A stretch of DNA of 64,000 bases from Holophagales bacterium (GCA_009837885.1 VXSP01000045.1:325526-389525), one strand, 5' to 3'. Shown: positions 13,230 through 58,730, counted from the first letter of the stretch. Notes: generated by a model from the sequence alone, not told the origin. A program made the numbers and translations.

Positions 13230-15217
13230 GACTTCGGTTCCTCTAAGGCTGCAGGCAGGGCAAGCGCGACGAGTTCGGGGGGCGTGCCGCCGCCGCCGAT
13301 GCCGAAGCGGCCGCCGCCGGTGGCGACGGCCAGGTACTGCCGGCCGTCGTGTTCGTAGATGATGGGGTTCGAGTTCGGGGTGCCCGGTAACTCGATTCCA
13401 CCGAGGTACTCGCCGGTCTTCTTGTCGTAGACGCTGATCTCCGGCGGCACGTCGGGTTCGTCGGCCTCGGGATCGGCGGTGCGTTCCGGGGCGGCCGTGA
13501 CGAAGAGCAGGGTGGGCGTGACCAGGGGAGCCGCGGTGTGATTGGCGACCCCGAGCCGTCCGAGTTCGAGGTCGGCGATGGCTGGATGGTTCACCGGACC
13601 GACGCCGTGCGGGACCATCCACAGGTGCTCGCCGGTGTTCAGATCGATCGCCGTGATTCGCCCGTATGGTGGCTTGACCAGGGGCAATCCACGGGGTCCC
13701 TCGACGGTCCGGTACCAACGATCCGGCACGAAGTTCAGGTCGGAGCGGTTCGGATCGGGCCTGGTCAGGGAGACGCTGGCCGAACGGGTGTGGGAGACGA
13801 CGTAGAGGATTCCGGTTTCGGGATCGACCGCGGCGCCGGTCCAGTTCGCGCCGCCGCCGTCGGCCGGCAACTGGATCGTCGGCTTTCCCGCCTCCTCGAA
13901 GCGCGGCGGCGTATAGAGCGGCACCAGGTCGTAGTCGGCTGCGATCTCGATCGCCTCGGCGCGGAGTTCGGGAGTCCAGTCGATCAGGTCGTCTTCGGTG
14001 ATGCCCTGGCGATCGAAGGCGGCCGGCCGGGTGGGGAAGGGCTGGGTTGGCGCGGCACGCTCGCCCGGCACGTCGCTTGGCGGCACCTCGCGTTCCTCGA
14101 TCTCCCACACCGGCTTGCCGGTCACACGGTCGAAGACGAAGGCGAAGGCCTGCTTGGTGACCTGGACCACGCCGCGCACCCGCTCGCCCTCCACCGTCGC
14201 CTCGAACAGGTTGGGGGCGGTCGGCGGGTCGTAGTCCCAGAGGCCGTGGTGGACGAACTGGTAGTGCCACTGGCGCTGGCCCGTTTCGCAGTCGACCGCG
14301 ACGATGCTCTCGGCGTAGAGGTTGTCACCGAGCCGGTGGCCGCCGTAGAGATCGTTGGTCGGCGTGCCGACCGGCAGATAGGCGGTGCCGGTCTCCTCGT
14401 CGACCGCGATCATGGACCAGACGTTCGTGTTACCGCTGTAGCGCCACGACTCGTCCTCCCAGGTTTCGACGCCGAGTTCGTCGTTCTGCGGGATGGTGTG
14501 GAAGACCCAGGCGAGATCGCCGGTCGGGATGTCATAGGCGCGCACGAACCCGGGCGGCGCTTCCTTGTGGGTGGCGAAGTCCGCCACGATCGAGCCAACG
14601 ATCACGGTGTTGCCGCAGACTGCCGGCGGCGAACTGTGCGTCGTCAGGCGCTCCATCACCTCGCGACCCAGGTGCGGCGTCATCTCGACCGCGCCGCCGT
14701 TGCCGAAGTCCGGATCAGGCTCTCCGGTTGCGGCGTCCAGGGAGATCAGCCGCCGGTCGTGGGTGGGGATCAGCACCCGCTCCTGCTGGCCGTCCGTCCA
14801 CCAGGCGACTCCGCGGTGGTGGAAGCCGAGGTTGGCCGGCCGGCCGGCGCGCCAGCTTTCCGGGTCGTAGGCCCAGAGCGTCTCGCCCGTCCCGGCGTCG
14901 ATCGCGGCGACCTGGCTGAGCGAGGTAGCGACGAAGATCCGGCCGCCGACCTCGAGCGGAATCGCCTTGAACTGGCCTCGTCGCACGCTGCTCGGGACTT
15001 CGGTGTCCGCGGCGATCGAGCGCCAGCGCCAGACGACCTCCACGTCCTGGAAGTTGGAGCGGTCGATCTCGTCGAGCGTCGAGTACTTGCTGTTGCCGGG
15101 ATCGCCACCGAAAGCCGGCCAGTCGCCGGAGGTTCCGGCCTGGGCCGTGAGCGGCGAACTCGCGAGTGAGCTGGCGAGCGCCGCGAGAGCGACGGCGAGG
15201 CTGGAATGGGTACTCAG
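13226..15217 (-). CDS. PQQ-dependent dehydrogenase (beta-propeller, no vicinal Cys pair)
   Basis: GDWPAFGGDPGNSKYSTLDEI, HHRGVAWW and repeated propeller W-motifs. No ATG, GTG or TTG lies between the upstream stop and the mature domain. The proposed start is CTG 15217 in a CTGA overlap, giving (M)STHSSLAVALAALASSLASSPLTAQA as signal peptide. Confidence 0.75.
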   Translation of the reverse strand: MSTHSSLAVALAALASSLASSPLTAQAGTSGDWPAFGGDPGNSKYSTLDEIDRSNFQDVEVVWRWRSIAADTEVPSSVRRGQFKAIPLEVGGRIFVATSLSQVAAIDAGTGETLWAYDPESWRAGRPANLGFHHRGVAWWTDGQQERVLIPTHDRRLISLDAATGEPDPDFGNGGAVEMTPHLGREVMERLTTHSSPPAVCGNTVIVGSIVADFATHKEAPPGFVRAYDIPTGDLAWVFHTIPQNDELGVETWEDESWRYSGNTNVWSMIAVDEETGTAYLPVGTPTNDLYGGHRLGDNLYAESIVAVDCETGQRQWHYQFVHHGLWDYDPPTAPNLFEATVEGERVRGVVQVTKQAFAFVFDRVTGKPVWEIEEREVPPSDVPGERAAPTQPFPTRPAAFDRQGITEDDLIDWTPELRAEAIEIAADYDLVPLYTPPRFEEAGKPTIQLPADGGGANWTGAAVDPETGILYVVSHTRSASVSLTRPDPNRSDLNFVPDRWYRTVEGPRGLPLVKPPYGRITAIDLNTGEHLWMVPHGVGPVNHPAIADLELGRLGVANHTAAPLVTPTLLFVTAAPERTADPEADEPDVPPEISVYDKKTGEYLGGIELPGTPNSNPIIYEHDGRQYLAVATGGGRFGIGGGGTPPELVALALPAALEEPKS

Positions 15218-15687
15218 GACAGCAGCCCGATCAGGCGGGCGTAGACCGAAACGCTGGTCCAGATGCCGATCGAGAGAAAGCCGACCACCTTGGGCCAGTG
15301 TCCGAGCGTTCCTTCCTCGGCGAAGGCGACCCGGCGGCGGATCGTGAAGTTGAAGAGCAGCCCGATGACGATGATCTGAATCTTCCACCAGAAGAACGGG
15401 CTGTAGTACTGCTTGAGCGCCGTGGACAGGACCTGGGGCGCGCCGGTCACGAACAGGGCGACGAAGCTCCAGATCATCCACCGGTCCATCTCTCGGGCGA
15501 GCTGGTTGAGAGGCGTCTTGATCAGGCCGCGTCCAAGCAGGCGCATGTCGACGACCAGGACGGCGCCGGCGAAGCCGACCAGCGCCACCAGGTGAGCGCA
15601 CTGGATGATCGGCGACGCCCAGGTCTCCTCCAGCATCCAGGCGCTGAAGGGCAGGCCCTGCATCCACTCGAAGAAGGACTGCAACAT
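15214..15687 (-). CDS. 4-TM membrane protein of unknown function (paralog of 15712..16236)
   Basis: 157 aa, hydrophobic. Shares FEW(M/V)..LP.S....E......I...H.......G......DMRL(L/I)G with the neighbouring gene. Confidence 0.7.
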   Translation of the reverse strand: MLQSFFEWMQGLPFSAWMLEETWASPIIQCAHLVALVGFAGAVLVVDMRLLGRGLIKTPLNQLAREMDRWMIWSFVALFVTGAPQVLSTALKQYYSPFFWWKIQIIVIGLLFNFTIRRRVAFAEEGTLGHWPKVVGFLSIGIWTSVSVYARLIGLLS

Positions 15688-15711
15688 GTGGACGTTTCCT
15701 CCGCGGCCTCT

Positions 15712-16236
15712 TCAGGCGCCGATGTTCAGGTTGTTCCACCAGCCGGGCATCAGGCCGCTGTAGGCCATCATCCGTCCGGTGACCACGACCGCCGCCCACA
15801 ACACGAGGGACACGACCCCGGCGAGTCGGGCGTTCAGCGGAATCTCGCGGCCCTGGTCCCACGCCTGGACCGACTTGTAGGTCGCGTAGTGGAACCAGAA
15901 CATGTTGATGCCGGCGACAAGCATCAGCGCCATCTTGGCCCAGAAGTAGAAGTTGCCGTAGTACCGCATCGGCTGGCTGTAAAGCAGCAATGCCCCGGTG
16001 ATCAGGTTGATGCCGTAGCCGGTCAGCGCCCACGGGAAGAGGCGGGTCGGGATGTTCGATACCGGCACCTTCTTGAGCGTGAACCCGATCAGGCGCATGT
16101 CCCAGTACGCGATCAACCCGGCGAACAGGCACATGCTGACGACGTGGATCGTCAGCATGGTCGGGTAGGCGTTCAGCGACTCCCGCAGCGCGATGCTGCT
16201 GGGAAGCGCATCGACCCACTCGAAGAGGCTACGCAT
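15712..16236 (-). CDS. 4-TM membrane protein of unknown function (paralog of 15214..15687)
   Basis: 174 aa, hydrophobic, with the same N-terminal motif as above. Confidence 0.7.
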   Translation of the reverse strand: MRSLFEWVDALPSSIALRESLNAYPTMLTIHVVSMCLFAGLIAYWDMRLIGFTLKKVPVSNIPTRLFPWALTGYGINLITGALLLYSQPMRYYGNFYFWAKMALMLVAGINMFWFHYATYKSVQAWDQGREIPLNARLAGVVSLVLWAAVVVTGRMMAYSGLMPGWWNNLNIGA

Positions 16237-16292
16237 GAGCTATGTAGGGGAGGGTTCAGCGGCTCCCGGCCTGCGCCGGGGCGAATGCGGGC

Positions 16293-16826
16293 TCAGTCGT
16301 CGCAGCGGTCCTGGTACTTGCGGTAGACGAAGTGGCAGTCCTCGCAGGCGCCGGCAAGCTCGTTGGTGAGGTCGCTGACCTTGTCGCGGTCCTTCTCGTG
16401 GGCGGCGGTGTAGATCTTCTTGGCGACCTCGGTGAGCTTGCGCGCATACTCCTGATAGTCGTCTTTCTGGACCGGCGCCGGCTTGCCGTTCTCGCACATC
16501 CGGTCCGGGTTCAGGATCTGCGGTTCGACCTCGGCCAGGGCAAGCGCCGCCTGCTGGGGAACCTGCCAACCCGTGTAGATACTGGCGAAGCGGGCCGAAG
16601 CGGAACCGTCGCCGCTGTCGGACGCTTCGGGCGGCGCCTCCGGATCGTAGGACTGGACATCGAACAGGTGGTTCGAGTTCGGGAACAGGATGGCGCGCAT
16701 CAGTTCGGCCAGGTTGCCTACCGGCTCCTCGTGCTCGGAGGCTGCGACGGACGGCGCCACAATCGCCATACACGCTGCGAGGGCCACCGCGGCGGTGAGA
16801 ATCGGCGCGAGTCTGGTCAGGCGCAT
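16293..16826 (-). CDS. Class II c-type cytochrome (cytochrome c'-like), secreted
   Basis: Start placed at MRLTRLAPILTAAVALAA, after GGAAGGAGAA. A single CxxCH (CEDCH) lies near the C-terminus of a helical ~175-aa protein, the class II cytochrome c layout. Confidence 0.7.
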   Translation of the reverse strand: MRLTRLAPILTAAVALAACMAIVAPSVAASEHEEPVGNLAELMRAILFPNSNHLFDVQSYDPEAPPEASDSGDGSASARFASIYTGWQVPQQAALALAEVEPQILNPDRMCENGKPAPVQKDDYQEYARKLTEVAKKIYTAAHEKDRDKVSDLTNELAGACEDCHFVYRKYQDRCDD

Positions 16827-16965
16827 TGTGCGGTTCTCCTTCCCCCGGAACAAGGGGATTGACGTTGGTTTCGGTTGGCTGGCGGAATCGCGAGCCGGGA
16901 GTGTAACTCAGAAACGGAGGCCTTCACGGGGGAAGCGGGTGCCGCCCGCGACGGCCTGGAGCTGC

Positions 16966-17466
16966 TCAGTCGTCGGACTCTTCTCCGGACGAACCCGTGA
17001 CGGGTTCAGCCATCGTTGTCGTCGCGATCAGCCACTGCATGTCGAGCCCCGCGGTGCGGTGGACCGAGTACTCGGCGACGCGCGGGTCGCCGATGATGCG
17101 GAGGAACTCGGCCCGCGAGGGGTACTCCATCAGGGCGATCGCGTGGAAGTACTCGTCCGTGTCGCCGATCACCATCGAATCGACCCGGCCGGACCAGATC
17201 AGACGGGCGCCCTGAGAGGTGACCCACTGGACCATCTGGGCGCCATACCTGCCGTACGCCTCCTCGCCCGTGAGGCCCTCGTCGGGGGCGTCGGCCTCCT
17301 TCTTGAAGCGCAGCAGGTTGACCATGACGACCGGCTCCTCGGCCGGGCCTTCCATGAGTTCCTGGATCTGTTCGGGTTCGGGTGCGATCTGGGCCATGGC
17401 GCCTCCAGCGGCCAGCAAGGCCACGGAAAAGGTGATGAAGGTAGCGGCGGAAAGGGGGCGGATCAT
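16966..17466 (-). CDS. DUF1330 domain protein with N-terminal signal peptide
   Basis: Start at ATG 17466, after AAAGGAG. MIRPLSAATFITFSVALLAAGGAMAQ is followed by VVMVNLLRFK...YGRYG...EYPS..AF, typical of DUF1330. Confidence 0.7.
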   Translation of the reverse strand: MIRPLSAATFITFSVALLAAGGAMAQIAPEPEQIQELMEGPAEEPVVMVNLLRFKKEADAPDEGLTGEEAYGRYGAQMVQWVTSQGARLIWSGRVDSMVIGDTDEYFHAIALMEYPSRAEFLRIIGDPRVAEYSVHRTAGLDMQWLIATTTMAEPVTGSSGEESDD

Positions 17467-17489
17467 GACAGGCTCCTTTCGAGTGGACG

Positions 17490-18755
17490 TCAGGCGGGCG
17501 AGCGAACCGCCATCGGTTGGAACTTCATGTAGGTGAGGGAACGCCACAGCCACTCCAGCGGTCCGAAGCGGAAGCGGGCCAGCCACCACGGCGACCAGAT
17601 CAGTTGCGCTGCCCAGATCGCGACGACGATGCCGAACTGGCCGAGGCGGCCGACCTGCTCGAACTGGCCGAGGCCGTGGCCGTAGAAGATAAGCGTGCAG
17701 ATGACGCTCTGGCTGATGTAGTTCGACAGCGCCATCCGGCCGGCCGCCTGGAGCCGGTGCTGCAAGCCGGGCAGCCAGCCGCGCAGAACGGCCAGCATGA
17801 CGAGCGCGACGTAGCCAAGAAAGACGATCGTGGCTCCAACGAGGTTGAAGACCATCCCCTGGAACATGGAGTGCTCGAAGGCGAAGCCGTGCCGTGTGTT
17901 GAACACCGCGCCGAGGATGACGATCGGCAGGCCGACGCCGAAGCTCGCGGCCAGAAGGCGCCGGTAGAAGGTTGGCGAGCGGCGGGCGGAAAACACACCG
18001 AGCTTGTAGAGGCCCATGCCCACGAGCATCAGGCCGCCGCTGCGCCAGAAGAACAGCACGAGGAAGACGAAGGTCTCCGCGCCCAGGGCCGTGGCGCTCC
18101 GGTGCGGAAGCTGGGTGAGCCAGCTCCCCCGATAGGTGGCGATCTCGGCCTCGATGGCGGCCGCCGCCGGCGCCCAGTCGCCGGCGAACTGGGCTTGGGC
18201 TTCGGCCGGCATGGACGGTAATGCCGTGCCGGTCAGCAGAAAGAACCCCGCCGGCACGACCGTCATCGCGAAGCCGCCGATCAGCAGCTTCTTCGGGCTC
18301 AGGTTGCGCAGGCTGTAGAGCAGGAAGCCGCACAGGGCATAGGGGACCAGGATGTCGCCGTACCAGATCAGGTGGGCGTGGGCGAGGCCGATGAGCAGCA
18401 GCCAGAACTGCCGGCGGTAGTGAACGCCCGTCGCCGAGCCTCCTCGGGCGGCGGCCCGCTCGGCCATCAGCGCCATTCCGGCGCCGAACAGGGCGGAGAA
18501 GATGGAGATGAACTTCATGTCGAAGAACACGTGCGCGACGAGCCAGGCCCAGTAGCCGGCGCCGACGCCCCAGTCGTTGGCGGCCGGGTTCAGATACGCC
18601 GCTTCGATCATCGAGTAGCTCTGCACGTTCATCGCCAGGATGCCGAGCACGGCGAAGCCGCGCAGGACATCGAGCGCCGCGATGCGCTCGCCGGAGCGGA
18701 CGGGCACCGCCCTGGGCGGGGCGGCGGATTCGGTGGGTGAGTCGGCGGTCGTCAC
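17490..18755 (-). CDS. DUF418/YeiB-like integral membrane protein
   Basis: Start placed at GTG 18755, just after the upstream stop. RIAALDVLRGFAVLGILAMN, FSALFGAG and multiple TM segments, then C-terminal RFRFGPLEWLWRSLTY, are typical of the DUF418 family. Confidence 0.8.
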   Translation of the reverse strand: MTTADSPTESAAPPRAVPVRSGERIAALDVLRGFAVLGILAMNVQSYSMIEAAYLNPAANDWGVGAGYWAWLVAHVFFDMKFISIFSALFGAGMALMAERAAARGGSATGVHYRRQFWLLLIGLAHAHLIWYGDILVPYALCGFLLYSLRNLSPKKLLIGGFAMTVVPAGFFLLTGTALPSMPAEAQAQFAGDWAPAAAAIEAEIATYRGSWLTQLPHRSATALGAETFVFLVLFFWRSGGLMLVGMGLYKLGVFSARRSPTFYRRLLAASFGVGLPIVILGAVFNTRHGFAFEHSMFQGMVFNLVGATIVFLGYVALVMLAVLRGWLPGLQHRLQAAGRMALSNYISQSVICTLIFYGHGLGQFEQVGRLGQFGIVVAIWAAQLIWSPWWLARFRFGPLEWLWRSLTYMKFQPMAVRSPA

Positions 18756-18772
18756 GGGGCTCGGCTCTTGCG

Positions 18773-19763: not shown

Positions 19764-20378
19764 TCATTGGCCGCTGGCGTCGGGGCGAGGGGGATTGATC
19801 ATGATGTGCGCACCCGCGGTGCCGGGGAACATCAGCCAGGGCGCGCCGGGCACCGGCCGGGTCGTCAGTCCGGTCGACTCGGGCGTTGCGTACGGCGTGT
19901 AGATCACCCAGCGCAGGTAGGCGTCACTCACTTCACCGGTCGCGGCGTCGAAGCCGCTACCGTGGAGCACGTACAAGGTGCGCGGCTCCCGCGGCATCGG
20001 CAGCTTGCCTTCCGCGATCTCCCGTTCACGAATCTCGATTCGTTCCTGGCCCTCGATGCCCTGGGCCGTCAGTTCGCGGCCGCGGGCCATGAACGGCTCC
20101 AGCGACTCGTGGTAACAGGCGACGCTCCACTGCGCGTCGCCAGGCCGGGCCGCCAGGCAGACGAGGTCGTTGCTGCCGGTCCGGAGTTCCACCACCTTGC
20201 CATCGGCGGTCCAGCCAAGCACGCGCGCGCCGTCCCGCCGGTCTTCCGGCGCCGCCTGGATTGCGGCGGCGAGCTGAGCTTCGGCATCGCCCGGTTCCGC
20301 CGCCGGTGAGGCTGCAGCCAGACAACCCAGCGCGAGCGCGGCGATCACTGCTTTCGATGTCCTCGTCCTGACGTGCAC
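19764..20378 (-). CDS. Secreted hypothetical protein
   Basis: 204 aa with signal peptide AVIAALALGCLAAASPAAE. No domain recognised. Codon usage resembles its neighbours. Confidence 0.55.
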   Translation of the reverse strand: MHVRTRTSKAVIAALALGCLAAASPAAEPGDAEAQLAAAIQAAPEDRRDGARVLGWTADGKVVELRTGSNDLVCLAARPGDAQWSVACYHESLEPFMARGRELTAQGIEGQERIEIREREIAEGKLPMPREPRTLYVLHGSGFDAATGEVSDAYLRWVIYTPYATPESTGLTTRPVPGAPWLMFPGTAGAHIMINPPRPDASGQ

Positions 20379-21226: not shown

Positions 21227-21248
21227 CGGGGCGCCGTCGGACGCACCC

Positions 21249-21505: not shown

Positions 21506-22426
21506 CTAGCCTCGCTCCTTTGCGAATGCGACTGTGCCGCGCAGCTCTTCGTAGGAACTGTGACCCGTCGCCGGTTTCACGATCCGCTGCCACTCTCGAT
21601 CCCAGACCTCGAGGACTTCGCGCGGTACTTCACGGGAGCCTTCTCCCGACTTTCCCTTGCGGACCTTTGTTGTGGTGCCGGAGGCGGGGAGGCCGCAGGG
21701 GGCGTTTCGGGCGTTGCGGACCAGGTGGTCGTCGAACTTCGAGCTGTGTTCGCGCATGAAGCCGATTGACGCTTGCCGGGTCGCGATCTCGATGTTGGGG
21801 TGCTCCGGGTCGAGCTTGAGGAACGCCGCGACGCGGGCGGTGGCGGCGGGGAGGTCGGCGACGATGTCCTCGAAGCAGAGCCAGAGGGTCTCCGGGTCCA
21901 GGCGCTCCGGCCACCAGGACACGAGGTGTTCCCAGTAGCGGCCGCTACGGGTGCCGTGGAAGATGAAGTCGAGGGCGAAGTCGCGGATCGAGACGGTCCC
22001 GGGCTCGAACACCCAGCCGCTGAAGAAGTGGAAGAAGGAGACGAGCGAATCGACCGGGTCGCGGACGACGAAGATGTTGCGCCCACCTTTCGGTGCCAGT
22101 TCCCGGCTCAGGTGGGTCTTGAACGCTCTGGGCTCGGCCCGCTGGTGTGCGTCGAGGTCGAGGCCGATGTCGTGGGCGACTTCGAGCCAGGGGACGACTT
22201 CCGTGATCTCGTCGAAGTCCATGTCGCCGCCGGTGCGGAGCCCGTGGACGATCTGCTGCATCAGGGTCGTGCCGGCCTTGGGATAGGTGGCGATCAGGAT
22301 GTCGCTGGGCCGCAGACTGAAGTCGAGACCGCGCCGTACTCCTTCTCGTGTGGCGAAGCCGGCCATGCGCCGCCTGATGCCCTCGACCGTAGTGGCCCGG
22401 TGAGGCGTCACGGCGCTGTCGCTCAC
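21506..22426 (-). CDS. Sulfotransferase family protein
   Basis: PAPS-binding 5'-PSB loop TYPKAGTT, FKTH, and the 3'-PB region VVRDPVDSLVSFFHF. The GTG 22426 start is in a GTGA overlap with the xth stop. Alternative ATG at 22366. Confidence 0.8.
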   Translation of the reverse strand: MSDSAVTPHRATTVEGIRRRMAGFATREGVRRGLDFSLRPSDILIATYPKAGTTLMQQIVHGLRTGGDMDFDEITEVVPWLEVAHDIGLDLDAHQRAEPRAFKTHLSRELAPKGGRNIFVVRDPVDSLVSFFHFFSGWVFEPGTVSIRDFALDFIFHGTRSGRYWEHLVSWWPERLDPETLWLCFEDIVADLPAATARVAAFLKLDPEHPNIEIATRQASIGFMREHSSKFDDHLVRNARNAPCGLPASGTTTKVRKGKSGEGSREVPREVLEVWDREWQRIVKPATGHSSYEELRGTVAFAKERG

Positions 22427-23232
22427 CCGAGTACCTCGGCCGAAAGGTCGACGCCGACCGGGCAGTGGTCCGAGCCGGTCACGTGCGTCAGGATGAACGC
22501 CCGCTCGACGAAACGCATCGCGGCCTCCGAGGCGAGCACGAGGTCGATCCGCCAGCCGACGTTGCGCTCGCGGGCCTGGAAGGCCTGCTTCCACCAGCTA
22601 TAGCGCACCGTGTCGGGGTGCAGGGTCCGGAAGGTGTCGATCCAGCCGGCGTCGAGCCAGCGCTGGACCTCGTCGCGTTCCTCCGGCAGGAAGCCGGAGT
22701 TCCTCGCGTTGTCCTTCGGGCGCGCCAGGTCGATCGGCTGCGGCGCCGTGTTGAAGTCGCCGATGACCAGGACGCGATAGCCGGCGGCGCGGGCCTGGTC
22801 GAGCTGGGCGAACAGGGCGCGGTAGAAGCCCAGCTTGTAGGGCACGCGGCTGTTGTCTCGCTTGCTGCCGCTGCCCTTCGGGAAGTAGACGTTCGCCACC
22901 AGCAGTTGGCCGAAGAGAGCCAGTTGCAGACGGCCCTCGGCGTCGAAGCGCGGTTCGCCGAGCGAGGTGCGGACCCAGGCCGGCTCCAGGCGGGAGTAGA
23001 GGCCGACGCCGGAGTAGCCTGGGCGCTCGGCGCTCGAGAAGGAGGTGTGCCAGCGCGTGGGCCGGCGAAGCTCCGGCGCCAGTTGCCCGGCGCGGGCCTT
23101 CGTTTCCTGCAGGCCGACGATCTGAGCCCGGCTCTTTCCCAGCCAGTCGAGGAAGCCCTTGCGCCCGGCGGCGCGCAAGCCGTTCACGTTCCAGGAGACG
23201 ACGCGGATGCGACGGCGCTTCCGGGGGCTCAG
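22423..23232 (-). CDS. xth: Exodeoxyribonuclease III
   Basis: VVSWNVNGLRA, GLQETK, IGDFN and SDHCPV motifs. The first ATG/GTG/TTG (23187) would delete the conserved SWN. The proposed start is CTG 23232 in a CTGA overlap with the upstream GNAT stop. Confidence 0.85.
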   Translation of the reverse strand: MSPRKRRRIRVVSWNVNGLRAAGRKGFLDWLGKSRAQIVGLQETKARAGQLAPELRRPTRWHTSFSSAERPGYSGVGLYSRLEPAWVRTSLGEPRFDAEGRLQLALFGQLLVANVYFPKGSGSKRDNSRVPYKLGFYRALFAQLDQARAAGYRVLVIGDFNTAPQPIDLARPKDNARNSGFLPEERDEVQRWLDAGWIDTFRTLHPDTVRYSWWKQAFQARERNVGWRIDLVLASEAAMRFVERAFILTHVTGSDHCPVGVDLSAEVLG

Positions 23233-23870
23233 GTGCGGCTCCGCTTCCCGGCGCCCAGGTCGTAGGACATGATCATCATGTCGCGGGTGCGCCCGGAGCG
23301 GTCGATGACCCAGTCGGTGAGCAGCGCCTCGGGCGAGAACCCGAGGCGCTCGAACACCCGGCGTGCTCCAATCTGCTCACGCGTCATCTGCGCTACCAGC
23401 TTGAGCAGACCCAGCTCTCTGGCCGTCTCGAACACCCGCTCGGTCAGCACGTGGCCGAGCCCGCAGCGGCGATGGGCCTCGGCGATGATCACGCGGATCT
23501 CGCCGAGGTGACTCATCCAGTGCAGGCCTCGAAGGTTCAGGCTGCCGTAGCCCACCAGCTCGCCTTCGTAGTGGGCCAGGGTAGTGAAGCGGCTGCCGGT
23601 GTCGGCGTCGTGGATCCATCCCTCCACCACGTCCGGATCGGTCAGGTCCGAGCGCAGGAACTGGAGGTCGATCTCGGGCAGGGCGCTGGCGAGCGAGACG
23701 ATGTCGTCCCGGTCGGCAGGGCGCAGGCGGCGCAGGTCGTAGGTGCGATCGCCGCACTGGACCTGGTCGACGGATTGGGTGCTCACGGGCCGCTCGGTCG
23801 TGCCCGGGTGGCGCGGCCGCGCCACCCGTGCCCCAGTCCGCGCGCCCGTCATTGGGTGCGCGGATGGCAA
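23229..23870 (-). CDS. GNAT family N-acetyltransferase
   Basis: Acetyl-CoA motif A region: IIAEAHRRCGLGHVLTERVFETARELGL..KLVAQM...N..ARRVFERLGF. The start is uncertain (ATG 23870, or GTG 23783). Confidence 0.75.
   Translation of the reverse strand: MPSAHPMTGARTGARVARPRHPGTTERPVSTQSVDQVQCGDRTYDLRRLRPADRDDIVSLASALPEIDLQFLRSDLTDPDVVEGWIHDADTGSRFTTLAHYEGELVGYGSLNLRGLHWMSHLGEIRVIIAEAHRRCGLGHVLTERVFETARELGLLKLVAQMTREQIGARRVFERLGFSPEALLTDWVIDRSGRTRDMMIMSYDLGAGKRSRT

Positions 23871-41466: not shown

Positions 41467-41470
<4 letters not shown>
40913..41470 (+). CDS. pyrR: Bifunctional pyrimidine operon regulator / uracil phosphoribosyltransferase PyrR
   Basis: 185 aa. [20 protein letters not shown], and the PRPP loop [39 protein letters not shown]. 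Confidence 0.9.
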
Positions 41471-42416: not shown

Positions 42417-42420
<4 letters not shown>

Positions 42421-50433: not shown

Positions 50434-51042
50434 ATGGGCCTGATGACCCTGGACGTGCCGGAAGCGTCGGCGGGTTACAGCCACTACGGTGTGCTGGCCC
50501 GCTTCGAAACCGCGAAGGCGCTCTACCGGGCCTGTGAGGCGGTCCGGGACGCCGGCTACTCGAAGTGGGACGCGCTGACGCCGTTTCCGGTTCATGGTCT
50601 CGAGAAGGCGATGGGGCTGAAGCCGTCCAGGCTGCCGTTCCTCGTGCTGGCCACGGGACTTTCCGGCGCCGGGCTCGGCTTCGCCCTGCAGAGCTGGGTC
50701 CACATCAAGGGCTACCCGCTGATCATCAGCGGCAAGCCGCTGTTCACCTGGCCCGCCTTCGTGCCGGTCACCTTCGAGCTCGGAGTGCTCGGCGCTGCGC
50801 TGGGGGCGGTGCTCGGCATGTTCGCCTTCAACAAGTTGCCCACCTACCACCATCCGCTCTTCCGGTCGAAGAACTTCGCGCGCGTGACGGACGACGGTCT
50901 GTTCATCGCCATCGAGGCCTGGGATCCGAAGTACGACGACCAGGACACCGCGGAGTTCCTGAGCAGGCTCGGCGCGGTCGAGGTGGAGCACGTGCCGATC
51001 GACGATCCCGCGGACGACGGTGACGGGGGAGGCGCCGCCTGA
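50434..51042 (+). CDS. actD: Alternative complex III subunit ActD (DUF3341)
   Basis: 202 aa. GVLARFE....L..A....RDAGY.KWDA.TPFPVHGL..AMG, then two TM helices, is the DUF3341 pattern. Confidence 0.8.
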   Translation: MGLMTLDVPEASAGYSHYGVLARFETAKALYRACEAVRDAGYSKWDALTPFPVHGLEKAMGLKPSRLPFLVLATGLSGAGLGFALQSWVHIKGYPLIISGKPLFTWPAFVPVTFELGVLGAALGAVLGMFAFNKLPTYHHPLFRSKNFARVTDDGLFIAIEAWDPKYDDQDTAEFLSRLGAVEVEHVPIDDPADDGDGGGAA

Positions 51043-52277
51043 TGGCCCACGGACCGCGCATCGTTCATCTCGATCAATTGGTCATCCGGCCGGGCAGCGG
51101 CTGGGCGCGCCTGCCTTTGATCGCGGGCGCGGTCGGCGTCGTCTTCACGGTCGTGTCGATCGTGCTGGCGATGGGGTCAAAAGAGAGCACCAAGCAGTTC
51201 TTCCACTCCTGGCTCGTCGCCGTCGTCTTCTTCCTCTGCATCGGTCTCGGCTGCCTGTTCTTCGTGCTGATTCACCACGCGACGAAGGCCGGCTGGGGCG
51301 TCGTGGTGCGCCGTCTGGCCGAGAACCTGGCCTGCACGGTGCCTGTGCTGGCCGTCCTGTTCATTCCGGTCGTGGCCCTGGGCATGTACGACCTGTTCCA
51401 CTGGACCCACGCCGACGCCGTGGCGCACGACCGGTTGCTGCAGGTCAAGGAACCGTGGCTCAACGAGACCGGCTTCTGGATTCGGACCGTCATCTACTTC
51501 GTGATCTGGAGTGGGCTGGCCCTCTACTTCCGGAACGCGTCGCGGCGCCAGGATGACAGCGGAGACGAGGCCCTTTCCCACCGGATGGCGCGATTCAGCC
51601 CCGTCGCGGTCGCCATGTTTGCCGTGACGCTGACGTTCGCCGGTTTCGACTGGCTGATGTCGCTGGAGCCGCACTGGTACTCGACGATGTTCGGCGTCTA
51701 CTTCTTCGCCGGTACGGTCGTCTCGGCGTTCGCGGCGCTTACGGTCCTCACCCTGGCCTTCGAACGGTCGGGCCACTTCCGGGGCGTGATCACCGGCGAG
51801 CACTTCCACGATCTCGGCAAGCTGCTGTTCGCCTTCACGGTCTTCTGGGCCTACATCGCCTTCAGCCAGTTCTTCCTCATCTGGTACGCGAACATCCCGG
51901 AGGAGACGAACTGGTTCCTGAGCCGGCTGCACGGCACGGCCGACAATCCGGCGAACTGGCGCCCGGCGACCCTGCTTCTGGCCATCGGCCACTTCGCCGT
52001 CCCGTTCTTCTTCCTCATGCCCCGGACGATCAAGCGCAACCGCACCCTGCTGCTGATCGGCGCCCTCTGGATGCTGGCCATGCACCTCTGGGACGTGTTC
52101 TGGCTGGTCATGCCGAACCTGCACCGGGAGATGACGTTCTCCCTGCTCGACCTGACCTCGCTGCTCGGCGTGGGCGGCGTGTTCCTGGCAACCGCGGGCT
52201 GGCTGCTGGGCCGCGGCTCGCTGGTGCCGTCCCGCGATCCGCGGCTGGTCGAGTCGCTGGCCTTCGAGAACATCTGA
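51042..52277 (+). CDS. actF: Alternative complex III subunit ActF-like quinone-binding membrane protein
   Basis: 411 aa and polytopic. FFLIWYANIPEETNWF and HATKAGWGVVVRR motifs. The start shares one nucleotide with the actD stop (TGATG). Confidence 0.75.
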   Translation: MAHGPRIVHLDQLVIRPGSGWARLPLIAGAVGVVFTVVSIVLAMGSKESTKQFFHSWLVAVVFFLCIGLGCLFFVLIHHATKAGWGVVVRRLAENLACTVPVLAVLFIPVVALGMYDLFHWTHADAVAHDRLLQVKEPWLNETGFWIRTVIYFVIWSGLALYFRNASRRQDDSGDEALSHRMARFSPVAVAMFAVTLTFAGFDWLMSLEPHWYSTMFGVYFFAGTVVSAFAALTVLTLAFERSGHFRGVITGEHFHDLGKLLFAFTVFWAYIAFSQFFLIWYANIPEETNWFLSRLHGTADNPANWRPATLLLAIGHFAVPFFFLMPRTIKRNRTLLLIGALWMLAMHLWDVFWLVMPNLHREMTFSLLDLTSLLGVGGVFLATAGWLLGRGSLVPSRDPRLVESLAFENI

Positions 52278-52396
52278 GACGTTCAGGGGCCCTCCCAGTC
52301 CGTCAGCCGTTCGCCTTGTTCAGTCCGCCGGTCCTTGCTACGCTGCGCACCGTCTCAGGACCTCTTGCAACACCTCTCCCGTCAAGGAGCATCGAC

Positions 52397-53113: not shown

Positions 53114-53154
53114 ACGAGGCAACCCCAGAAAGTAGCTAGAAAGGAGCGGCGTCC

Positions 53155-54912
53155 ATGGCGGAGCCCGTTCACGCTTCACCTGCACACGACGAGCATCACC
53201 ACGAGCAGAGCTTCTGGCGGAAGTACATCTTCTCGACCGATCACAAGGTGATCGGCGTCCAGTACTCGGTCACGGGTCTGGCGTTTCTCCTCTTCGGGTT
53301 CGTCCTGATGATGGTGATGCGCTGGAACCTCGCCTACCCGGGCGAGCCGATTCCCTTCATCGGCTCGCTCCTCGGCGAGAACCGGGCGCCCGGCGGCATC
53401 ATGCTGCCGGACTTCTACAACGAGCTCGGCGCCATGCACGGCACGATCATGGTGTTCCTGGGGGTCGTGCCGCTGGCGGTCGGCGGCTTCGGCAACTTCG
53501 TCATGCCGCTGCAGCTCGGCGCCCCGGACATGGCCTTCCCGCGGATCAACATGATCAGCTACTGGTGCCTGTTCCTGGGCGGCGTGACGATGTTCGCCAG
53601 CTTCTTCCTGCCGAACGGCGCCGCGGGCAACGGCTGGACCTCCTACTCGCCGCTGGCCGACATCGCGCTGAACGGCCAGACCGCCTGGCTGATCGGGATG
53701 ATCTTCCTGATCACGTCGTCCCTGCTGGGCGCGGTCAACTTCATCACCACGGCGATCCAGCTCCGGGCTCCGGGCATGACCTGGATGCGACTGCCCTTCT
53801 TCTGCTGGGCGCAGATCGTGACCGCCTTCCTCCTGCTGCTGGCCTTCCCGCCGCTCGAGGCCGCGGGCGTGCTGCAGTTGATGGACCGGGTCGCGAACAC
53901 CAGTTTCTTCATTCCGGAGGGCCTGGTGGTCGGTGGCGAAGTGGTCGACCGGAGCGGAGGCGGCAGCCCGCTGCTCTGGCAGCACCTGTTCTGGTTCCTG
54001 GCCCACCCGGAGGTCTACGTGCTCATCCTGCCGGCGATGGGGATCGTCGCCGAGGTGATCGCGAACAACTCCCGCAAGCCGCTCTGGGGTTACCGCTCGA
54101 TGGTCTACTCCCTGATCTTCCTCGGCTTCATGAGCTTCATCGTCTGGGCGCACCACATGTTCATCACCGGCATGGGCTCGGTGATGTCGACCTTCTTCCA
54201 GACGACGACGATGATCATCTCGATCCCGTCGGTCATCATCCTGAGCGCGCTCTTCATCTCGCTGTGGGGCGGTTCCATCCGCTACAACACGCCGATGCTG
54301 TTCGCGCTCGGCTTCCTGCCGATGTTCGGCATAGGAGGGCTGACCGGGCTGCCGCTCGGTCTCTCGGCGGCGGACATCCCGCTCCACGACACCTACTACG
54401 TGATCGGGCACTTCCACTACGTGGTGGCGCCCGGAACCCTGTTCGCGCTGTTCGCCGGCGTCTACTACTGGTTCCCCAAGGTGACGGGGCGCAAGATGAA
54501 CGAGTTCCTGGGCAAGCTCCACTTCTGGCCCTCGCTCGTCTTCATGAACGGGGTTTTCTTCCCGATGATGATCCAGGGCCTGAACGGCGTATCGCGCCGG
54601 CTCGCCGACGGCGGCATCACTTACGACTTCGCGGGCGAGGTCGCCGGGCTGAACCGGATGATGTCGGTTTCGGCCTGGTGCCTGGCGGTGGCGCAGATTC
54701 CGTTCATCATCAACTTCTTCATGAGCATCCGGAACGGCGAGAAGGCCGGACGCAACCCCTGGAACTCGACCACCGTCGAGTGGCTGGCGCCGTCGCCGGC
54801 TCCGCACGGCAACTTCGATCAGCCGATCGAGGTTGTGCGCGGGCCGTACGAGTACAGCGTCCCGGGTAGCGACAAGGACTACGTCCCACAGGCCGAACCG
54901 GCCTCAACCTGA
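53155..54912 (+). CDS. ctaD: Cytochrome c oxidase subunit I (A1-type haem-copper oxidase)
   Basis: 585 aa. GAPDMAFPRIN, WFLAHPEVYVLILP (HPEVY with the Glu and the cross-link Tyr), WAHHMF and GHFHYV. Confidence 0.95.
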   Translation: MAEPVHASPAHDEHHHEQSFWRKYIFSTDHKVIGVQYSVTGLAFLLFGFVLMMVMRWNLAYPGEPIPFIGSLLGENRAPGGIMLPDFYNELGAMHGTIMVFLGVVPLAVGGFGNFVMPLQLGAPDMAFPRINMISYWCLFLGGVTMFASFFLPNGAAGNGWTSYSPLADIALNGQTAWLIGMIFLITSSLLGAVNFITTAIQLRAPGMTWMRLPFFCWAQIVTAFLLLLAFPPLEAAGVLQLMDRVANTSFFIPEGLVVGGEVVDRSGGGSPLLWQHLFWFLAHPEVYVLILPAMGIVAEVIANNSRKPLWGYRSMVYSLIFLGFMSFIVWAHHMFITGMGSVMSTFFQTTTMIISIPSVIILSALFISLWGGSIRYNTPMLFALGFLPMFGIGGLTGLPLGLSAADIPLHDTYYVIGHFHYVVAPGTLFALFAGVYYWFPKVTGRKMNEFLGKLHFWPSLVFMNGVFFPMMIQGLNGVSRRLADGGITYDFAGEVAGLNRMMSVSAWCLAVAQIPFIINFFMSIRNGEKAGRNPWNSTTVEWLAPSPAPHGNFDQPIEVVRGPYEYSVPGSDKDYVPQAEPAST

Positions 54913-54932
54913 CCGTTCGAGGACCTCAAGAG

Positions 54933-55532
54933 ATGGAAATCCCCTACACGGTAGAGGCCCACCCCGAAACCGGCCTCAACAACGGGAAGATCGGGATCTG
55001 GCTGTTCCTGACCTCGGAGGTCATGCTGTTCGGGGCGTTGTTCGCCACGTTCATCATGCTGCGCCTGGGATCGGACGGCAACTGGGCCGCGATGCAGGCG
55101 GAAGCGGAGCTCAACATTCCGCTGGCGACGCTCAACACGGCCGTGCTGATCGCCTCCAGTCTGACGATGGTCATGGCCTGGGCGTCGCTGATGCGCGGGC
55201 AACTGGGCCGGTTCAAGCTGTTCGGCTGGCTGACCGTCGCCTGCGGCGGCGTCTTCTTGGTCATCAAGTACTTCGAGTACACGGCGAAGTTCGAGCACCA
55301 CCACTACCCGGAGTCGAGCACCTTCCTCGCCATCTACTTCGCGATGACGGGCCTCCACGCCCTGCACGTGATCGGCGGCATGGCCTGGAACGCCTACTTC
55401 ACCGGGCCGGGGTCGAAGCTTTTCCACACGAACCGGCAGTGGCTGACCGACCGGGTCGAGCACTCCGGTCTGTTCTGGCACTTCGTCGACCTGGTCTGGA
55501 TCTTCCTCTTCCCCGTCTTCTACCTGCTGTAG
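54933..55532 (+). CDS. ctaE: Cytochrome c oxidase subunit III (short form)
   Basis: 199 aa. WLFLTSEVMLFGALF, YFAMTGLHALHVIGG and LFWHFVDLVWIFLFP. Confidence 0.9.
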   Translation: MEIPYTVEAHPETGLNNGKIGIWLFLTSEVMLFGALFATFIMLRLGSDGNWAAMQAEAELNIPLATLNTAVLIASSLTMVMAWASLMRGQLGRFKLFGWLTVACGGVFLVIKYFEYTAKFEHHHYPESSTFLAIYFAMTGLHALHVIGGMAWNAYFTGPGSKLFHTNRQWLTDRVEHSGLFWHFVDLVWIFLFPVFYLL

Positions 55533-55584
55533 CGGACATCTGCCGCCCTGAATCCCTGGTCTACCCTGGAGCGAGTCGCATTCC

Positions 55585-55914
55585 ATGAGTGAACACGTCG
55601 ATATCGACAAGCAGGTCCGCGTCTACTTCCTGGTTTTCGGCGCCCTGATGGTGGGTACGCTCGTCACGGTTCTTGCGGCGGAACTCGATGTTTCGGTGCC
55701 GGTGGCCCTCACCATCGGCCTGTTCATCGCCACCGCCAAGGCGTCGCTGGTCGCCTGCTTCTTCATGCACCTGATCGACGAGAAGAAGATCATCTACTGG
55801 ACGCTGGCCCTGACCGTCGCGTTCTTCATCGCCCTGATGGCGTTGCCGCTCCTGACCTCGGTAGCGGACCAGGTAGGGGAGTTCGCCGAAGTCGAGGCGC
55901 ACGAGCCGCACTGA
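55585..55914 (+). CDS. Cytochrome c oxidase subunit IV family protein
   Basis: 109 aa with three TM segments and the FFMHL motif typical of prokaryotic CoxIV/QoxD-like subunits. Confidence 0.7.
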   Translation: MSEHVDIDKQVRVYFLVFGALMVGTLVTVLAAELDVSVPVALTIGLFIATAKASLVACFFMHLIDEKKIIYWTLALTVAFFIALMALPLLTSVADQVGEFAEVEAHEPH

Positions 55915-55933
55915 CGATCCCGCTGAACGCGTC

Positions 55934-56407
55934 ATGAACCTGAAGGTCATTCACATCGTCTTCGTCGGCAGCGCCATTCTCCTGGCGCTGTTCTTCGGCG
56001 GCTGGTGTCTGGCGCAGGGGAGCGCGTTCGCGGTGGGCGCCGTTCTTTCCTTCGCGGTCGCGGCTGCGCTCGTCTGGTACGGCATCTGGTTCTGGCGCAA
56101 GATCACGACGCCCGAAGAGGAGTGGGCTCGCCGGCGCAAGCTGTTCCGCACGATTCCCGTTGCCGTGGTCGTCTGGCTCTTCGCCTCCGAGCCGGCGGCC
56201 TGGGCCTGCTCGGTCTGCTACGGGGCCGCTGAAGGGTCGATGATCGACGCGGCCCGGGCCGGGGTGTGGTTCCTGCTGGCGGCCGTGTTCGTGATGCAGG
56301 GGGCCTTCGTTCTCTTCTTTCTCTATCTCCGGCGCCGTGCCCGGCGTCTGCGAACCGACCCGGTGCCGCCCTGGTGGAGCACCGTTGAGGAGCCTGTCAA
56401 GTCATGA
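55934..56407 (+). CDS. 4-TM membrane protein with CSVCYG motif, embedded in the cox operon
   Basis: 157 aa with four hydrophobic helices. A CxxC lies at the predicted start of TM3. ATGA overlap with the following coxII start. Confidence 0.6.
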   Translation: MNLKVIHIVFVGSAILLALFFGGWCLAQGSAFAVGAVLSFAVAAALVWYGIWFWRKITTPEEEWARRRKLFRTIPVAVVVWLFASEPAAWACSVCYGAAEGSMIDAARAGVWFLLAAVFVMQGAFVLFFLYLRRRARRLRTDPVPPWWSTVEEPVKS

Positions 56408-57207
56408 TGGATGCCATGTTCCCGGCCGCGGCGTCGGAGCACGCCGGCCGGATCGACAACATGATCGACGCGGTGCACTACCTGATGCTCGCGCTCTTCA
56501 TCGTCTGGGGCGTGTTCTTCGTGTACGTGCTGATGCGCTTCCGCGCCAGCCGCAACCCGAAGGCGGACTACGTCGGCGTCAAGAGCAAGATGAGCACTTA
56601 TGGTGAAGTCGCCGTGGCGATCGCGGAAGGGATTCTCCTGCTCGGCTTCTCGATTCCCATGTGGGCGGAACGGGTGGACGAAGTGCCGCCGGAGTCCGAG
56701 GCGACGGTCGTGCGGGTCGTGGCGCAGCAGTTCGCGTGGAACGTCTGGTATCCGGGGGCCGACGGCGAGTTCGGCGCGCAGGACCTGTCACTGATAGACG
56801 AGGCGACCAATCCGATCGGCCTCGACCGCGACAGCGAGGCCGGCGCCGACGACATCTGGACGGTGAACCAGTTGCACCTCCCGGTCGACAAGGCGGCGAT
56901 CATCCACCTGACGTCCAAGGACGTGATCCACAGCTTCAACCTGCCGAACATGCGGATCAAGCAGGACACGATCCCGGGCATTTCGATTCCGGTCTGGTTC
57001 GTTCCCACCAAGACCACCGCCCAGATCCGCGAAGAGACCGGAAACCCGGACTACGTCTACGAGATCGCCTGCGCCCAACTCTGCGGCAACAGCCACTACT
57101 CGATGCGCGGCTTCCTGACCGTGCACACCGAGGAGGAGTTCCAGGCCTGGCTCGACGAGGAGGCGTCCTACCTCACCGGCAGCGACGACGACTTCTTCGA
57201 CTTCTAG
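56404..57207 (+). CDS. ctaC: Cytochrome c oxidase subunit II (CuA domain, no fused cytochrome c)
   Basis: 267 aa with two N-terminal TM helices. CuA ligands DVIHSF ... CAQLCGNSHYSM. Confidence 0.9.
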   Translation: MMDAMFPAAASEHAGRIDNMIDAVHYLMLALFIVWGVFFVYVLMRFRASRNPKADYVGVKSKMSTYGEVAVAIAEGILLLGFSIPMWAERVDEVPPESEATVVRVVAQQFAWNVWYPGADGEFGAQDLSLIDEATNPIGLDRDSEAGADDIWTVNQLHLPVDKAAIIHLTSKDVIHSFNLPNMRIKQDTIPGISIPVWFVPTKTTAQIREETGNPDYVYEIACAQLCGNSHYSMRGFLTVHTEEEFQAWLDEEASYLTGSDDDFFDF

Positions 57208-57234
57208 GAGCCTGGCCGCGAGGCCGGTTCCTTC

Positions 57235-57261
57235 ACTGGGTGCGCCGGCGTCCCCGCCGGC
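57235..57261 (+). repeat. 27-nt palindromic intergenic element, copy C
   Basis: ACTGGGTGCGCCGGCGTCCCCGCCGGC, 28 nt after the coxII stop. It sits inside a pair of ~45-nt imperfect direct repeats, each beginning GGCCGCRAGGCCGGTTCC (57214 and 57291). Confidence 0.8.
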
Positions 57262-57335
57262 TGCCGCCGGAGGCGGTGAGGAAACGTACCGGCCGCAAGG
57301 CCGGTTCCCTATGCTCTGGGTGTACGCTCTGAAGA

Positions 57336-58730
57336 ATGAGCGGTTGCACACCCCTCTGGGGCCGCCGCGAGCTGTTGAAGGCGGCCTGGGTAGGGCCTTC
57401 GGCGGCGGCCGCCGCGTTTAGCGCCCACGCCGCGGCGAGTCAGGAAGCTGACGAAGACGACGCCGCGGGGCAGCCGGCCGAAGAGGCGCTCAAGGCATAC
57501 CGGGCGGGCTTCGCCGCTCCGCCGCTCGAGCGGGTGCGGATCGGTTTCGTCGGCGTCGGCCTTCAGGGCGGCGGCCACGTCCGGAACTTCCTCCGCATCG
57601 AGGGGGTCGATCTCGTGGCGGTCTGCGACATCGACGAGCGTCGCGCCGAGGAGGTGGCCTCGTGGATCGTCGACGCGGACAACGAGCCGCCCGAGCTCTA
57701 CACCCGGGGCGAGACGGACTTCAAGCGTCTCTGCGAGCGCGACGATATCGACCTCGTCTTCAACTCGACCCCCTGGCGGTGGCACGTTCCCGTCTGCGTC
57801 GAGGCGATGGAAACCGGGAAGCACACCGCGGTCGAGGTGCCGGCCGCGATCACGCTCGAGGGCTGCTGGCGTCTGGTCGAGACCGCCGAACGCACCGCGC
57901 GGCACTGCGTGATGATGGAGAACTGCAACTACGGCCGCAGCGAGATGATGGTCCTGAACATGGTGCGCCAGGGCCTGCTGGGAGACCTTCTTCACGGCGA
58001 GGCGGCCTACATTCATGACCTGCGGTCGATCAAGTTCTCCGATCGCAACGAGGGACTGTGGCGCCTGCAGCACTCGGTGGAACGGAACGCGAACCTCTAC
58101 CCGACCCATGGCCTTGGGCCAGTAGCCCAGTGCATGGACATCAACCGGGGCGACTGCTTCGACTACCTCGTCTCGCTGTCGAGCCCGGCCAAGGGGCTGG
58201 CGCTCTACGCGGCGGAACGGTTCGGCGCCGACGATCCGCGGGCCAGGGTCCGCTACGCCCTGGGTGACATGAACTCGAGCCTGATCCGGACGCGGCGCGG
58301 GCGCAGCATCCTGCTGCAGCACGACACGACGACGCCCAGACCGTACAGCCGGCTCAACCTGGTGCAGGGTACCCGCGGCGTGTTCGCGGGGTTTCCGGAC
58401 CGGATCTTCATCGAAGGCGAGGCCGAGGGGCACGAGTGGAGCGATGTCGAGCCCTACCGGGAGCGCTTCGAGCATCCGTTGTGGGCGGAGCGGTCCGGCG
58501 ATGCCGAGGGCGCCGGCCACGGCGGCATGGACTACCTCGAGGACTACCGGCTGGTCCGCTGTCTGCTCGAGGGCACGCCCACCGACATGGACGTCTACGA
58601 CGCGGCGGCGCTGTCGGCGCCGGTCGAGTTGAGCGAACTCTCGGTCGCCCGGGGCAGCGAGCCGGTCGAGTTCCCCGACTTCACCCGCGGCGCCTACCGG
58701 ACGCGGCCGCCGCTGGGGATCGTCGCCTGA
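57336..58730 (+). CDS. Gfo/Idh/MocA-family NAD-dependent oxidoreductase with Tat signal (GH109-like)
   Basis: GRRELLKAA Tat motif. Rossmann IGFVGVGLQGGGH. VMMENCNYG and YPTHGLGP motifs are typical of GH109-type proteins. Confidence 0.8.
   Translation: MSGCTPLWGRRELLKAAWVGPSAAAAAFSAHAAASQEADEDDAAGQPAEEALKAYRAGFAAPPLERVRIGFVGVGLQGGGHVRNFLRIEGVDLVAVCDIDERRAEEVASWIVDADNEPPELYTRGETDFKRLCERDDIDLVFNSTPWRWHVPVCVEAMETGKHTAVEVPAAITLEGCWRLVETAERTARHCVMMENCNYGRSEMMVLNMVRQGLLGDLLHGEAAYIHDLRSIKFSDRNEGLWRLQHSVERNANLYPTHGLGPVAQCMDINRGDCFDYLVSLSSPAKGLALYAAERFGADDPRARVRYALGDMNSSLIRTRRGRSILLQHDTTTPRPYSRLNLVQGTRGVFAGFPDRIFIEGEAEGHEWSDVEPYRERFEHPLWAERSGDAEGAGHGGMDYLEDYRLVRCLLEGTPTDMDVYDAAALSAPVELSELSVARGSEPVEFPDFTRGAYRTRPPLGIVA

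Follow-up and report, generated by a model that had tools for sequence, protein, structure and literature searches.

Initiation at CUG is known in bacteria, although in E. coli it reaches only 1-2% of the level of AUG (10.1101/063800). Verified CTG starts are those of the E. coli genes hda and yfjD (PMC3531124), and such starts are also found in plasmid RepA and in rpsL, the latter conserved across Deinococcus-Thermus (PMC2830850). In comparative data, switches from AUG to CUG amount to approx. 3 in 100,000 (PMC5622118). Other weak start codons, i.e., the AUU codons of infC and pcnB, are cited in passages of PMC2830850 and PMC3592434. Translational coupling at 4-nt overlaps between a stop and a start codon has been documented in bacteria and archaea (PMC6728339, PMC12548453); these two papers discuss ATGA and TGATG overlaps and do not treat CTG at a stop/start overlap. 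Here, we describe three genes that appear to combine both features. They lie in a stretch of 64,000 nucleotides (VXSP01000045.1:325526-389525 of GCA_009837885.1, hereafter the window) from a 568-kb Thermoanaerobaculia/'Candidatus (Ca.) Multivorans' metagenome scaffold (ENA), the organism being an uncultured sponge-associated acidobacterium. The genes are xth, which encodes a protein of the exodeoxyribonuclease III family, a gene for a family 4 glycosyltransferase (GT), and a gene for a pyrroloquinoline quinone (PQQ)-dependent dehydrogenase. With a probability of roughly 0.8, xth, the GT gene and, less certainly, the PQQ dehydrogenase gene are translated from a near-cognate CUG start codon.

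An earlier note on this DNA had proposed that each of these genes starts at a CTG that overlaps the TGA of the preceding gene, the resulting CTGA junctions being located at 15217-15214 (minus strand, PQQ dehydrogenase), 23232-23229 (minus strand, xth) and 58727-58730 (plus strand, GT). These coordinates and frames were found to be correct, as were the N-termini deduced from them, which are (L)STHSSLAVALAAL for the PQQ dehydrogenase, (L)SPRKRRRIRVVSWNVNG for xth and (L)RVAYLLPG for the GT. Inspection of the frames also bore out the positions of the nearest canonical starts and the costs of using them. Comparison with approx. 40 related genomes supports CTG initiation strongly for xth and the GT and moderately for the PQQ dehydrogenase. 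These relatives, obtained from a scan of species-representative genomes, are labelled Thermoanaerobaculia, Holophagales or 'Candidatus Multivorans', and many of them are closed long-read chromosomes. The xth comparison was anchored on the SWNVNG motif, unconditioned on the junction, and covered 39 clade genomes, and the PQQ dehydrogenase comparison comprised 27 orthologous loci. The counts of CTG conservation given below rest on unconditional listings of junctions only. The codon-phase variability profile, on the other hand, was selected for the presence of CTGA, so that its CTGA invariance is circular and it serves for codon-phase variability only.

Start sites of xth and the glycosyltransferase gene

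The re-annotated xth coding sequence extends over 22423..23232 on the minus strand (269 codons plus stop). Its proposed CTG start (23230..23232) overlaps the TGA at 23231-29 that ends an upstream gene for a GNAT acetyltransferase (23229..23852, minus strand; Pfam Acetyltransf_1; the gene call was made in locus L001 and mapped to the window). The xth frame opens after TGA 23379, and the first ATG, GTG or TTG within it is GTG 23187, which encodes the V of SWNVNG. In 38 of the 39 clade genomes, an in-frame CTG within a CTGA is present 10-12 codons before the Ser of this motif. All 38 also carry a GGAG at positions -10 to -7 of the CTG, surrounded by variable bases; in the window, this Shine-Dalgarno (SD)-like element occupies 23239..23242 (minus strand), 6 nt upstream of the CTG. 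The leader that follows the CTG, S-P-R-x-R-R-R-[ILV]-R-V-V, displays synonymous codon turnover, with Ser encoded by AGC or AGT and Arg by all four CGN codons, and is therefore translated. In L067, an in-frame TGA lies five codons upstream of the CTG, which leaves CTG as the only near-cognate codon ahead of the translated leader. The sole exception among the 39 genomes is L035, in which a TTG start is located two codons closer, and outgroups with at most 66% identity have ATG, GTG or TTG 3-8 codons before SWN.

The Pfam model PF03372 (Exo_endo_phos) matches xth with 114.5 bits (cut-off 24.5) over model positions 1-225 and residues 12-256, so that the domain begins four residues ahead of the first canonical codon. 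Automatic annotation places the start at residue 16 (GTG 23187), with the loss of S-W-N. In the protein database, every close relative is likewise called truncated, beginning with MSWNVNG... or MNGLRA..., and segments such as VVSWNVNGLR and IRVVSWNVNGLR are encoded upstream of the annotated GTG or span it.

Two further observations concern the xth locus. In L035, the most divergent clade member (84% identity), the GNAT TGA lies in the xth frame at approx. 9985-10021, with the TTG start two codons later, which suggests that a small indel turned a CTGA overlap into a canonical xth start. Within the xth coding sequence of the window, ARAGORN reports a tRNA-Arg(ccg) of 97 nt (22636-22732, minus strand), and it does so as well in L006, L011 and L021, i.e., in 3 of 41 orthologous loci; this call is most likely a false positive.

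The GT gene is re-annotated as 58727..59776 on the plus strand (349 codons plus stop), with its proposed CTG start at 58727..58729 overlapping the TGA (58728-30) of a GH109-like gene (57336..58730, plus strand; Pfam GFO_IDH_MocA and Glyco_hydro_109_C). The protein matches PF13692 with 44.3 bits (cut-off 27) and PF00534 with 25.9 bits, slightly below the cut-off of 26.4, and an identical protein is named 'glycosyltransferase family 4 protein' by NCBI. The nearest canonical starts are GTG 58436 and GTG 58481, which would entail an overlap of 250-295 nt with the GH109-like gene, and GTG 58778, which lies 17 codons within the gene. Eight homologues with 44-58% identity begin with M[KR][VIA][VA][YF][LI]LNG.ALYGGVKV, and their Met aligns exactly with the CTG of the window. 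An alignment of orthologs had been recommended in the earlier note as a check of its proposal, and its outcome is favourable, in that the Met of distant GT homologues falls exactly at the CTG and the leader that follows the xth CTG is translated. Variation in the 15 codons after the GT CTG falls almost wholly on the third codon position, with values of 0.0, 0.5 and 2.88 for positions 1, 2 and 3, respectively.

At the DNA level, the GT CTG is present in every close lineage examined, including L093 with 69% identity, except for L087/L088, in which a GTG occupies the position of the CTG codon after an intergenic gap of 105 nt. In L095 and L097-L099, the stop codon of the GH109-like gene is followed by 13 nt (GGAGTCTTCGGGT) and then by the CTG, with a GGAG ahead of it; a scan of JGI metagenomes for further GT lineages returned three contigs only, all of the L095 type. 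In L089, L090 and L096, the GT gene has no upstream in-frame canonical start whatsoever. Nearly all close relatives of the GT, including the 100%-identical NCBI entry P0121, are called from the internal GTG (58778 in the window) and are thus 17 residues short, lacking MRVAYLLPGAALYGGVK; of the remaining public calls, two have spurious upstream extensions and one is correct at GTG. The segment VAYLLPGAALYGGVK includes residues encoded upstream of the annotated GTG 58778.

The L089, L090 and L096 loci also carry a tandem duplication of 21 nt (approx. 9912-9950 in L089) that comprises the end of the GH109-like gene and the CTGA junction (GGGCATCGTGGCCTGA TCCGT GGGGATTGTGGCCTGA). This duplication yields two in-frame CTGA: the leading one coincides with the real GH109 stop, and the trailing one lies at the conserved N-terminus of the GT. 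It had been considered that L089 and L096 represent a loss of the GT overlap; this was rejected, as the duplication keeps an in-frame CTGA on the real GH109 stop.

In the genomes compared, translation of xth and the GT must begin at the codon that follows the CTG or directly ahead of it, where CTG is the only start-like codon, and no canonical start is common to all orthologues. Judged from the same alignments, the CTG arrangement has been kept while a family-level clade of Thermoanaerobaculia diversified. For xth and the GT, no canonical start fits the conserved N-terminus, and the substitution pattern downstream of the CTG is that of coding sequence. In the PQQ dehydrogenase, the lack of a fitting canonical start extends to the window and 12 other genomes, and the signal-peptide region is too variable for its substitution pattern to be decisive. 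A conserved in-frame CTG at the position where homologues start is found in all three genes.

The PQQ dehydrogenase gene

The re-annotated coding sequence of the PQQ-dependent dehydrogenase covers 13226..15217 on the minus strand (663 codons plus stop). Its favoured CTG start (15215..15217), which is CTG in all 27 loci, overlaps the TGA (15216-14) of a DUF6644 membrane-protein gene (15214..15687, minus strand). A start at this codon would yield a signal-like peptide of 27 residues ending in AQA, with the W..FGGD motif at residue 33; in the full-length homologues listed (at most 52% identity), the W motif is located at about residues 25-51. The protein matches PF01011 with 596.8 bits over model positions 1-594 and residues 33-628. 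Among canonical codons, the closest are GTG 15388, at a distance of 57 codons upstream, and GTG 15043, 58 codons downstream and beyond the W..FGGD motif; the latter was chosen by automatic annotation, which begins the protein at residue 59.

An alternative in-frame CTG is located 15 codons upstream (15260..15262, minus strand); 19 genomes have CTG and 8 have GTG at this codon, which arises from an Ile/Met-Trp pair in the overlapped DUF6644 frame. The codon nine positions upstream of the favoured CTG is some NTG in 13 genomes. With weaker confidence than for xth and the GT, it appears from this comparison that the PQQ dehydrogenase gene of the window starts at a CTG, either 15217 or 15262. The former is favoured because it is situated on a stop codon, whereas CTG 15262 has neither an SD motif nor an obvious means of capturing ribosomes.

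A second copy of the PQQ dehydrogenase gene, found in L010 (approx. 19676) and L016 (approx. 19954), starts with ATG (MKFVALVASACAFAGPPVTAQAGTTGDWPAFGGD), 27 codons before its W. In these genomes, one PQQ copy would therefore begin with ATG and the other with CTG.

Chance expectation and alternative start sites

Considered by itself, the CTGA geometry on which the earlier note had drawn does not exceed chance, as 23 of the 31 TGA stops of the window have a C directly before them and an in-frame open CTGA at the upstream stop is found in 11 of the 36 co-directional gene pairs of the window. The genome-wide count of CTGA junctions suggested in that note would have little power, given that most TGA stops follow a C anyway. 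What does go beyond chance is the joint occurrence of three features, namely the lack of a usable canonical start, homology at the N-terminus and conservation between species. In a screen for the onset of coding, for which a simple codon-usage gene finder was applied to 50 window genes, a canonical start explains 47, mostly within approx. 25 codons, and the three exceptions are xth, the GT gene and the PQQ dehydrogenase gene. The related loci were screened as well (704 gene instances in 80 families, 43 of which have at least three members; the sample is centred on the same three genes). Among the 43 families, these three are the least well explained by canonical starts, with scores of 0.33, 0.49 and 0.65; the next family scores 0.75 and the rest at least 0.85.

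Several points weigh against initiation at CTG or limit its reach. CTGA is the default context at TGA stops, and conservation of its C is therefore weak evidence; C also precedes in-frame TGG, TGC and TAC codons in 67-71% of cases, and 17% of the four-fold sites of DUF6644 are invariant as well. The reading of the invariant C as a mark of selection for CTG has been withdrawn on these grounds. In the PQQ dehydrogenase, a canonical codon stands 9 or 15 positions ahead of the CTG in 14 of the 27 genomes, a second in-frame CTG or GTG stands 15 codons upstream in all 27, and no SD-like motif was seen when one was sought before CTG 15217. As for the role of the overlap, coupling is not required in the GT gene, given that L095 and L097-L099 have 13 nt between the stop and the CTG, which follows a GGAG. 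Finally, the pattern is absent from the other 77 gene families of the sampled related loci, which leaves a genome-wide habit unproven.

If the automatic calls were right, translation would begin at GTG 23187 in xth, GTG 58778 in the GT gene and GTG 15043 in the PQQ dehydrogenase gene. These internal codons are the only canonical ones free of a long overlap, and both Prodigal-type and NCBI calls adopt them for the window and nearly all close relatives. However, they would deprive xth of S-W-N, the GT of MRVAYLLPGAALYGG, which matches the N-terminus of every distant homologue in the alignment, and the PQQ dehydrogenase of its signal peptide together with 26 residues of the propeller model. The regions so skipped evolve as coding sequence, by synonymous turnover, and as to the xth codon directly before SWN, 11 of 28 distinct sequences have GTG and the others GTC. 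Internal starts thus appear extremely unlikely. Upstream canonical starts with a long overlap, i.e., GTG 58436 or 58481 for the GT and GTG 15388 for the PQQ dehydrogenase, lie in frames that are indeed open far upstream, and GTG 15388 is present in 27 of 27 loci. Its conservation is nevertheless explained by the overlapped gene, where it sits in tgGTGg, i.e., in two Trp codons of DUF6644. The synonymous diversity of DUF6644 is not diminished in the 57-codon would-be overlap (0.316 vs. 0.206), which argues against dual coding, and a 57-residue extension ahead of the hydrophobic segment does not fit the signal peptides of homologues. For the GT, orthologues such as those of L089, L090 and L096 offer no start of this kind, and for xth, an upstream canonical codon is wholly absent. 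This explanation is regarded as very unlikely.

It might also be that another non-canonical codon is used, namely ATC 23208 in xth or CTG 15262 in the PQQ dehydrogenase. Translation from ATC 23208 would produce MRVVSWNVNG, which resembles the N-terminus of homologue P0011 (MRIVSWNVNG), and the codon at -15 of the PQQ dehydrogenase gene, CTG or GTG in 27 of 27 loci, would add Arg residues to the n-region of the signal peptide. The xth candidate was nonetheless rejected, since the corresponding codon (-4 relative to SWN) is CTT, CTC or GTT in 6 genomes and thus incapable of initiation, and the leader upstream of it evolves as coding sequence. CTG 15262 is surrounded by translated sequence, where nothing would attract ribosomes to it; an SD-like motif was sought before it and none was seen, and its NTG form is a by-product of the Ile/Met-Trp pair in DUF6644. 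Altogether, this possibility seems improbable. Still less credible than any of the above is that the genes are fused to their upstream neighbours by a frameshift at the stop codon, or that the junctions reflect assembly errors or pseudogenes. It is true that, relative to the stop, the downstream gene is read in the -1 frame, which in most genomes stays open further upstream. Ahead of the xth junction, however, the final sense codon occurs in nine forms, and hence no slippery site is conserved; the in-frame stop of L067 five codons upstream of the xth CTG argues against fusion, and relatives possess free-standing starts (GTG after the 105-nt gap in L087/L088, TTG in L035). An assembly error is excluded, because the xth sequence is identical in four independent assemblies and recurs in closed long-read chromosomes, and short- and long-read assemblies made independently show the same junctions. 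Purifying selection acts on all three genes in dozens of species. Initiation at the conserved CTG thus remains the preferred explanation for xth and the GT and, with less certainty, for the PQQ dehydrogenase.

Some peculiarities of stop codons in the window can be recorded here. The base before a stop depends strongly on context: C is prevalent before TGA, as stated above, and G precedes TAG in 13 of 16 cases, consistent with the avoidance of CTAG. After subtraction of the real ATGA and GTGA overlaps, 23 of 25 TGA stops are CTGA, compared with approx. 70% expected (nominal p = 0.009), an excess that could reflect the avoidance of accidental start codons on stop codons. Where the upstream gene ends with CTGA, the downstream gene lies in the CTG frame in 13 of 20 co-directional pairs vs. 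one third expected (nominal p = 0.004, post hoc); in most cases, a canonical start occurs a few codons beyond the CTGA. For the COX1-COX3 pair, the frame relation is not strictly conserved, as the spacer measures 20 nt in six loci and 21 nt in L091. In two further genes of the window (8026-9282, plus strand, and 19764-20378, minus strand), the coding signal starts 18-36 codons from the nearest canonical start; ATG 8026 and GTG 20378 are plausible starts for them, the N-termini probably consisting of low-complexity sequence or signal peptides.

Coupling and comparison with known systems

It is reasonable to assume that the initiator fMet-tRNA would read CUG with a first-position mismatch, as it does with GUG and UUG. 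A ribosome that terminates translation of the upstream gene at UGA would sit directly on the CUG, and this position might aid weak initiation through termination-reinitiation coupling. The GGAG motif located 6-9 nt upstream in xth and, in one lineage, in the GT gene could provide additional help. The likely outcome would be low expression tied to that of the upstream gene. GGAG-type motifs with a spacing of 4-10 precede 22 of the 46 canonical starts of the window, compared with 21% at internal control positions. At the three CTGA junctions, stop and start overlap as in coupled gene pairs, and the co-directional neighbours are conserved; a shared transcript is assumed. Coupled reinitiation that tolerates CTG, as the earlier note had envisaged, is plausible, though less well supported than initiation at CTG itself. 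The signs of a dependence on upstream translation are mixed, since the absence of an SD motif in the PQQ dehydrogenase would fit it, whereas xth has a conserved GGAG and the GT CTG of L095 and L097-L099 serves at a distance of 13 nt from the stop.

Canonical overlaps of the same geometry exist in the window, and all six that had been reported earlier are real. ATGA overlaps are located at 13226..13229 (minus strand, from the PQQ dehydrogenase gene to a second PQQ gene), 56404..56407 and 63257..63260 (both plus strand), and GTGA overlaps at 22423..22426 (minus strand, from xth to a sulfotransferase gene), 41467..41470 and 42417..42420 (both plus strand). One more junction of the coupling type, absent from the earlier list, is a 1-nt TGATG at 51040-51044 (plus strand), with one gene ending and the next starting at 51042.

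The occurrence of three such cases in close proximity hints at a greater tolerance of CUG in this lineage than in E. coli. A further-reaching and rather doubtful possibility is that 'Ca. Multivoraceae' (Thermoanaerobaculia) have relaxed start-codon stringency, such that CTG would be a routine start at the percent level, especially at stop/start junctions. All public annotations of these sponge symbionts would then truncate dozens to hundreds of genes in each genome, and the cause could lie in IF3, initiator tRNA or 16S rRNA. An ARAGORN scan of the sampled loci for initiator tRNA returned only the sporadic tRNA-Arg inside xth, and a quest for IF3 in the sampled loci was equally fruitless. For the three genes described here, what is lost from annotation is a strand of the catalytic site (xth), the nucleotide-sugar-binding N-terminus (GT) and the export signal (PQQ dehydrogenase). 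Such missing N-termini affect predictions of function and localisation for abundant sponge symbionts. The three junctions also lend themselves, as natural test sequences, to the question of whether a ribosome fresh from termination discriminates less strictly between start codons, and they suggest that a weak CUG start can endure over long evolutionary time in genes of a housekeeping type.

In relation to known systems, the three genes resemble infC and pcnB with their AUU codons in that a poor start codon is conserved, presumably setting low or regulated expression. Unlike infC and pcnB, none of the three genes has a known or suspected regulatory loop, and with C being the default base ahead of TGA, the conserved weak codon need not reflect selection for it. 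With the coupled ATGA and GTGA overlaps, of which the window itself holds six, they share the geometry of stop and start. They differ from these in that the start is CTG and that the overlap is not obligatory, as one GT lineage keeps the CTG without overlap. The closest likeness is to hda, yfjD, RepA and rpsL, in which CUG is, as proposed here, the sole start of an ordinary protein gene and is betrayed by conserved residues before the first canonical codon; with rpsL of Deinococcus-Thermus, they additionally share the conservation of the CTG start throughout a clade. In contrast to those examples, the present cases, known from sequence alone, comprise three genes within 64 kb, each with its CTG on the preceding stop codon or at most 13 nt after it. 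CTG starts as such are thus already known, if rare; what is unusual here is that there are three among approx. 53 genes, that they persist over dozens of species and that they are uniformly positioned at a stop codon.

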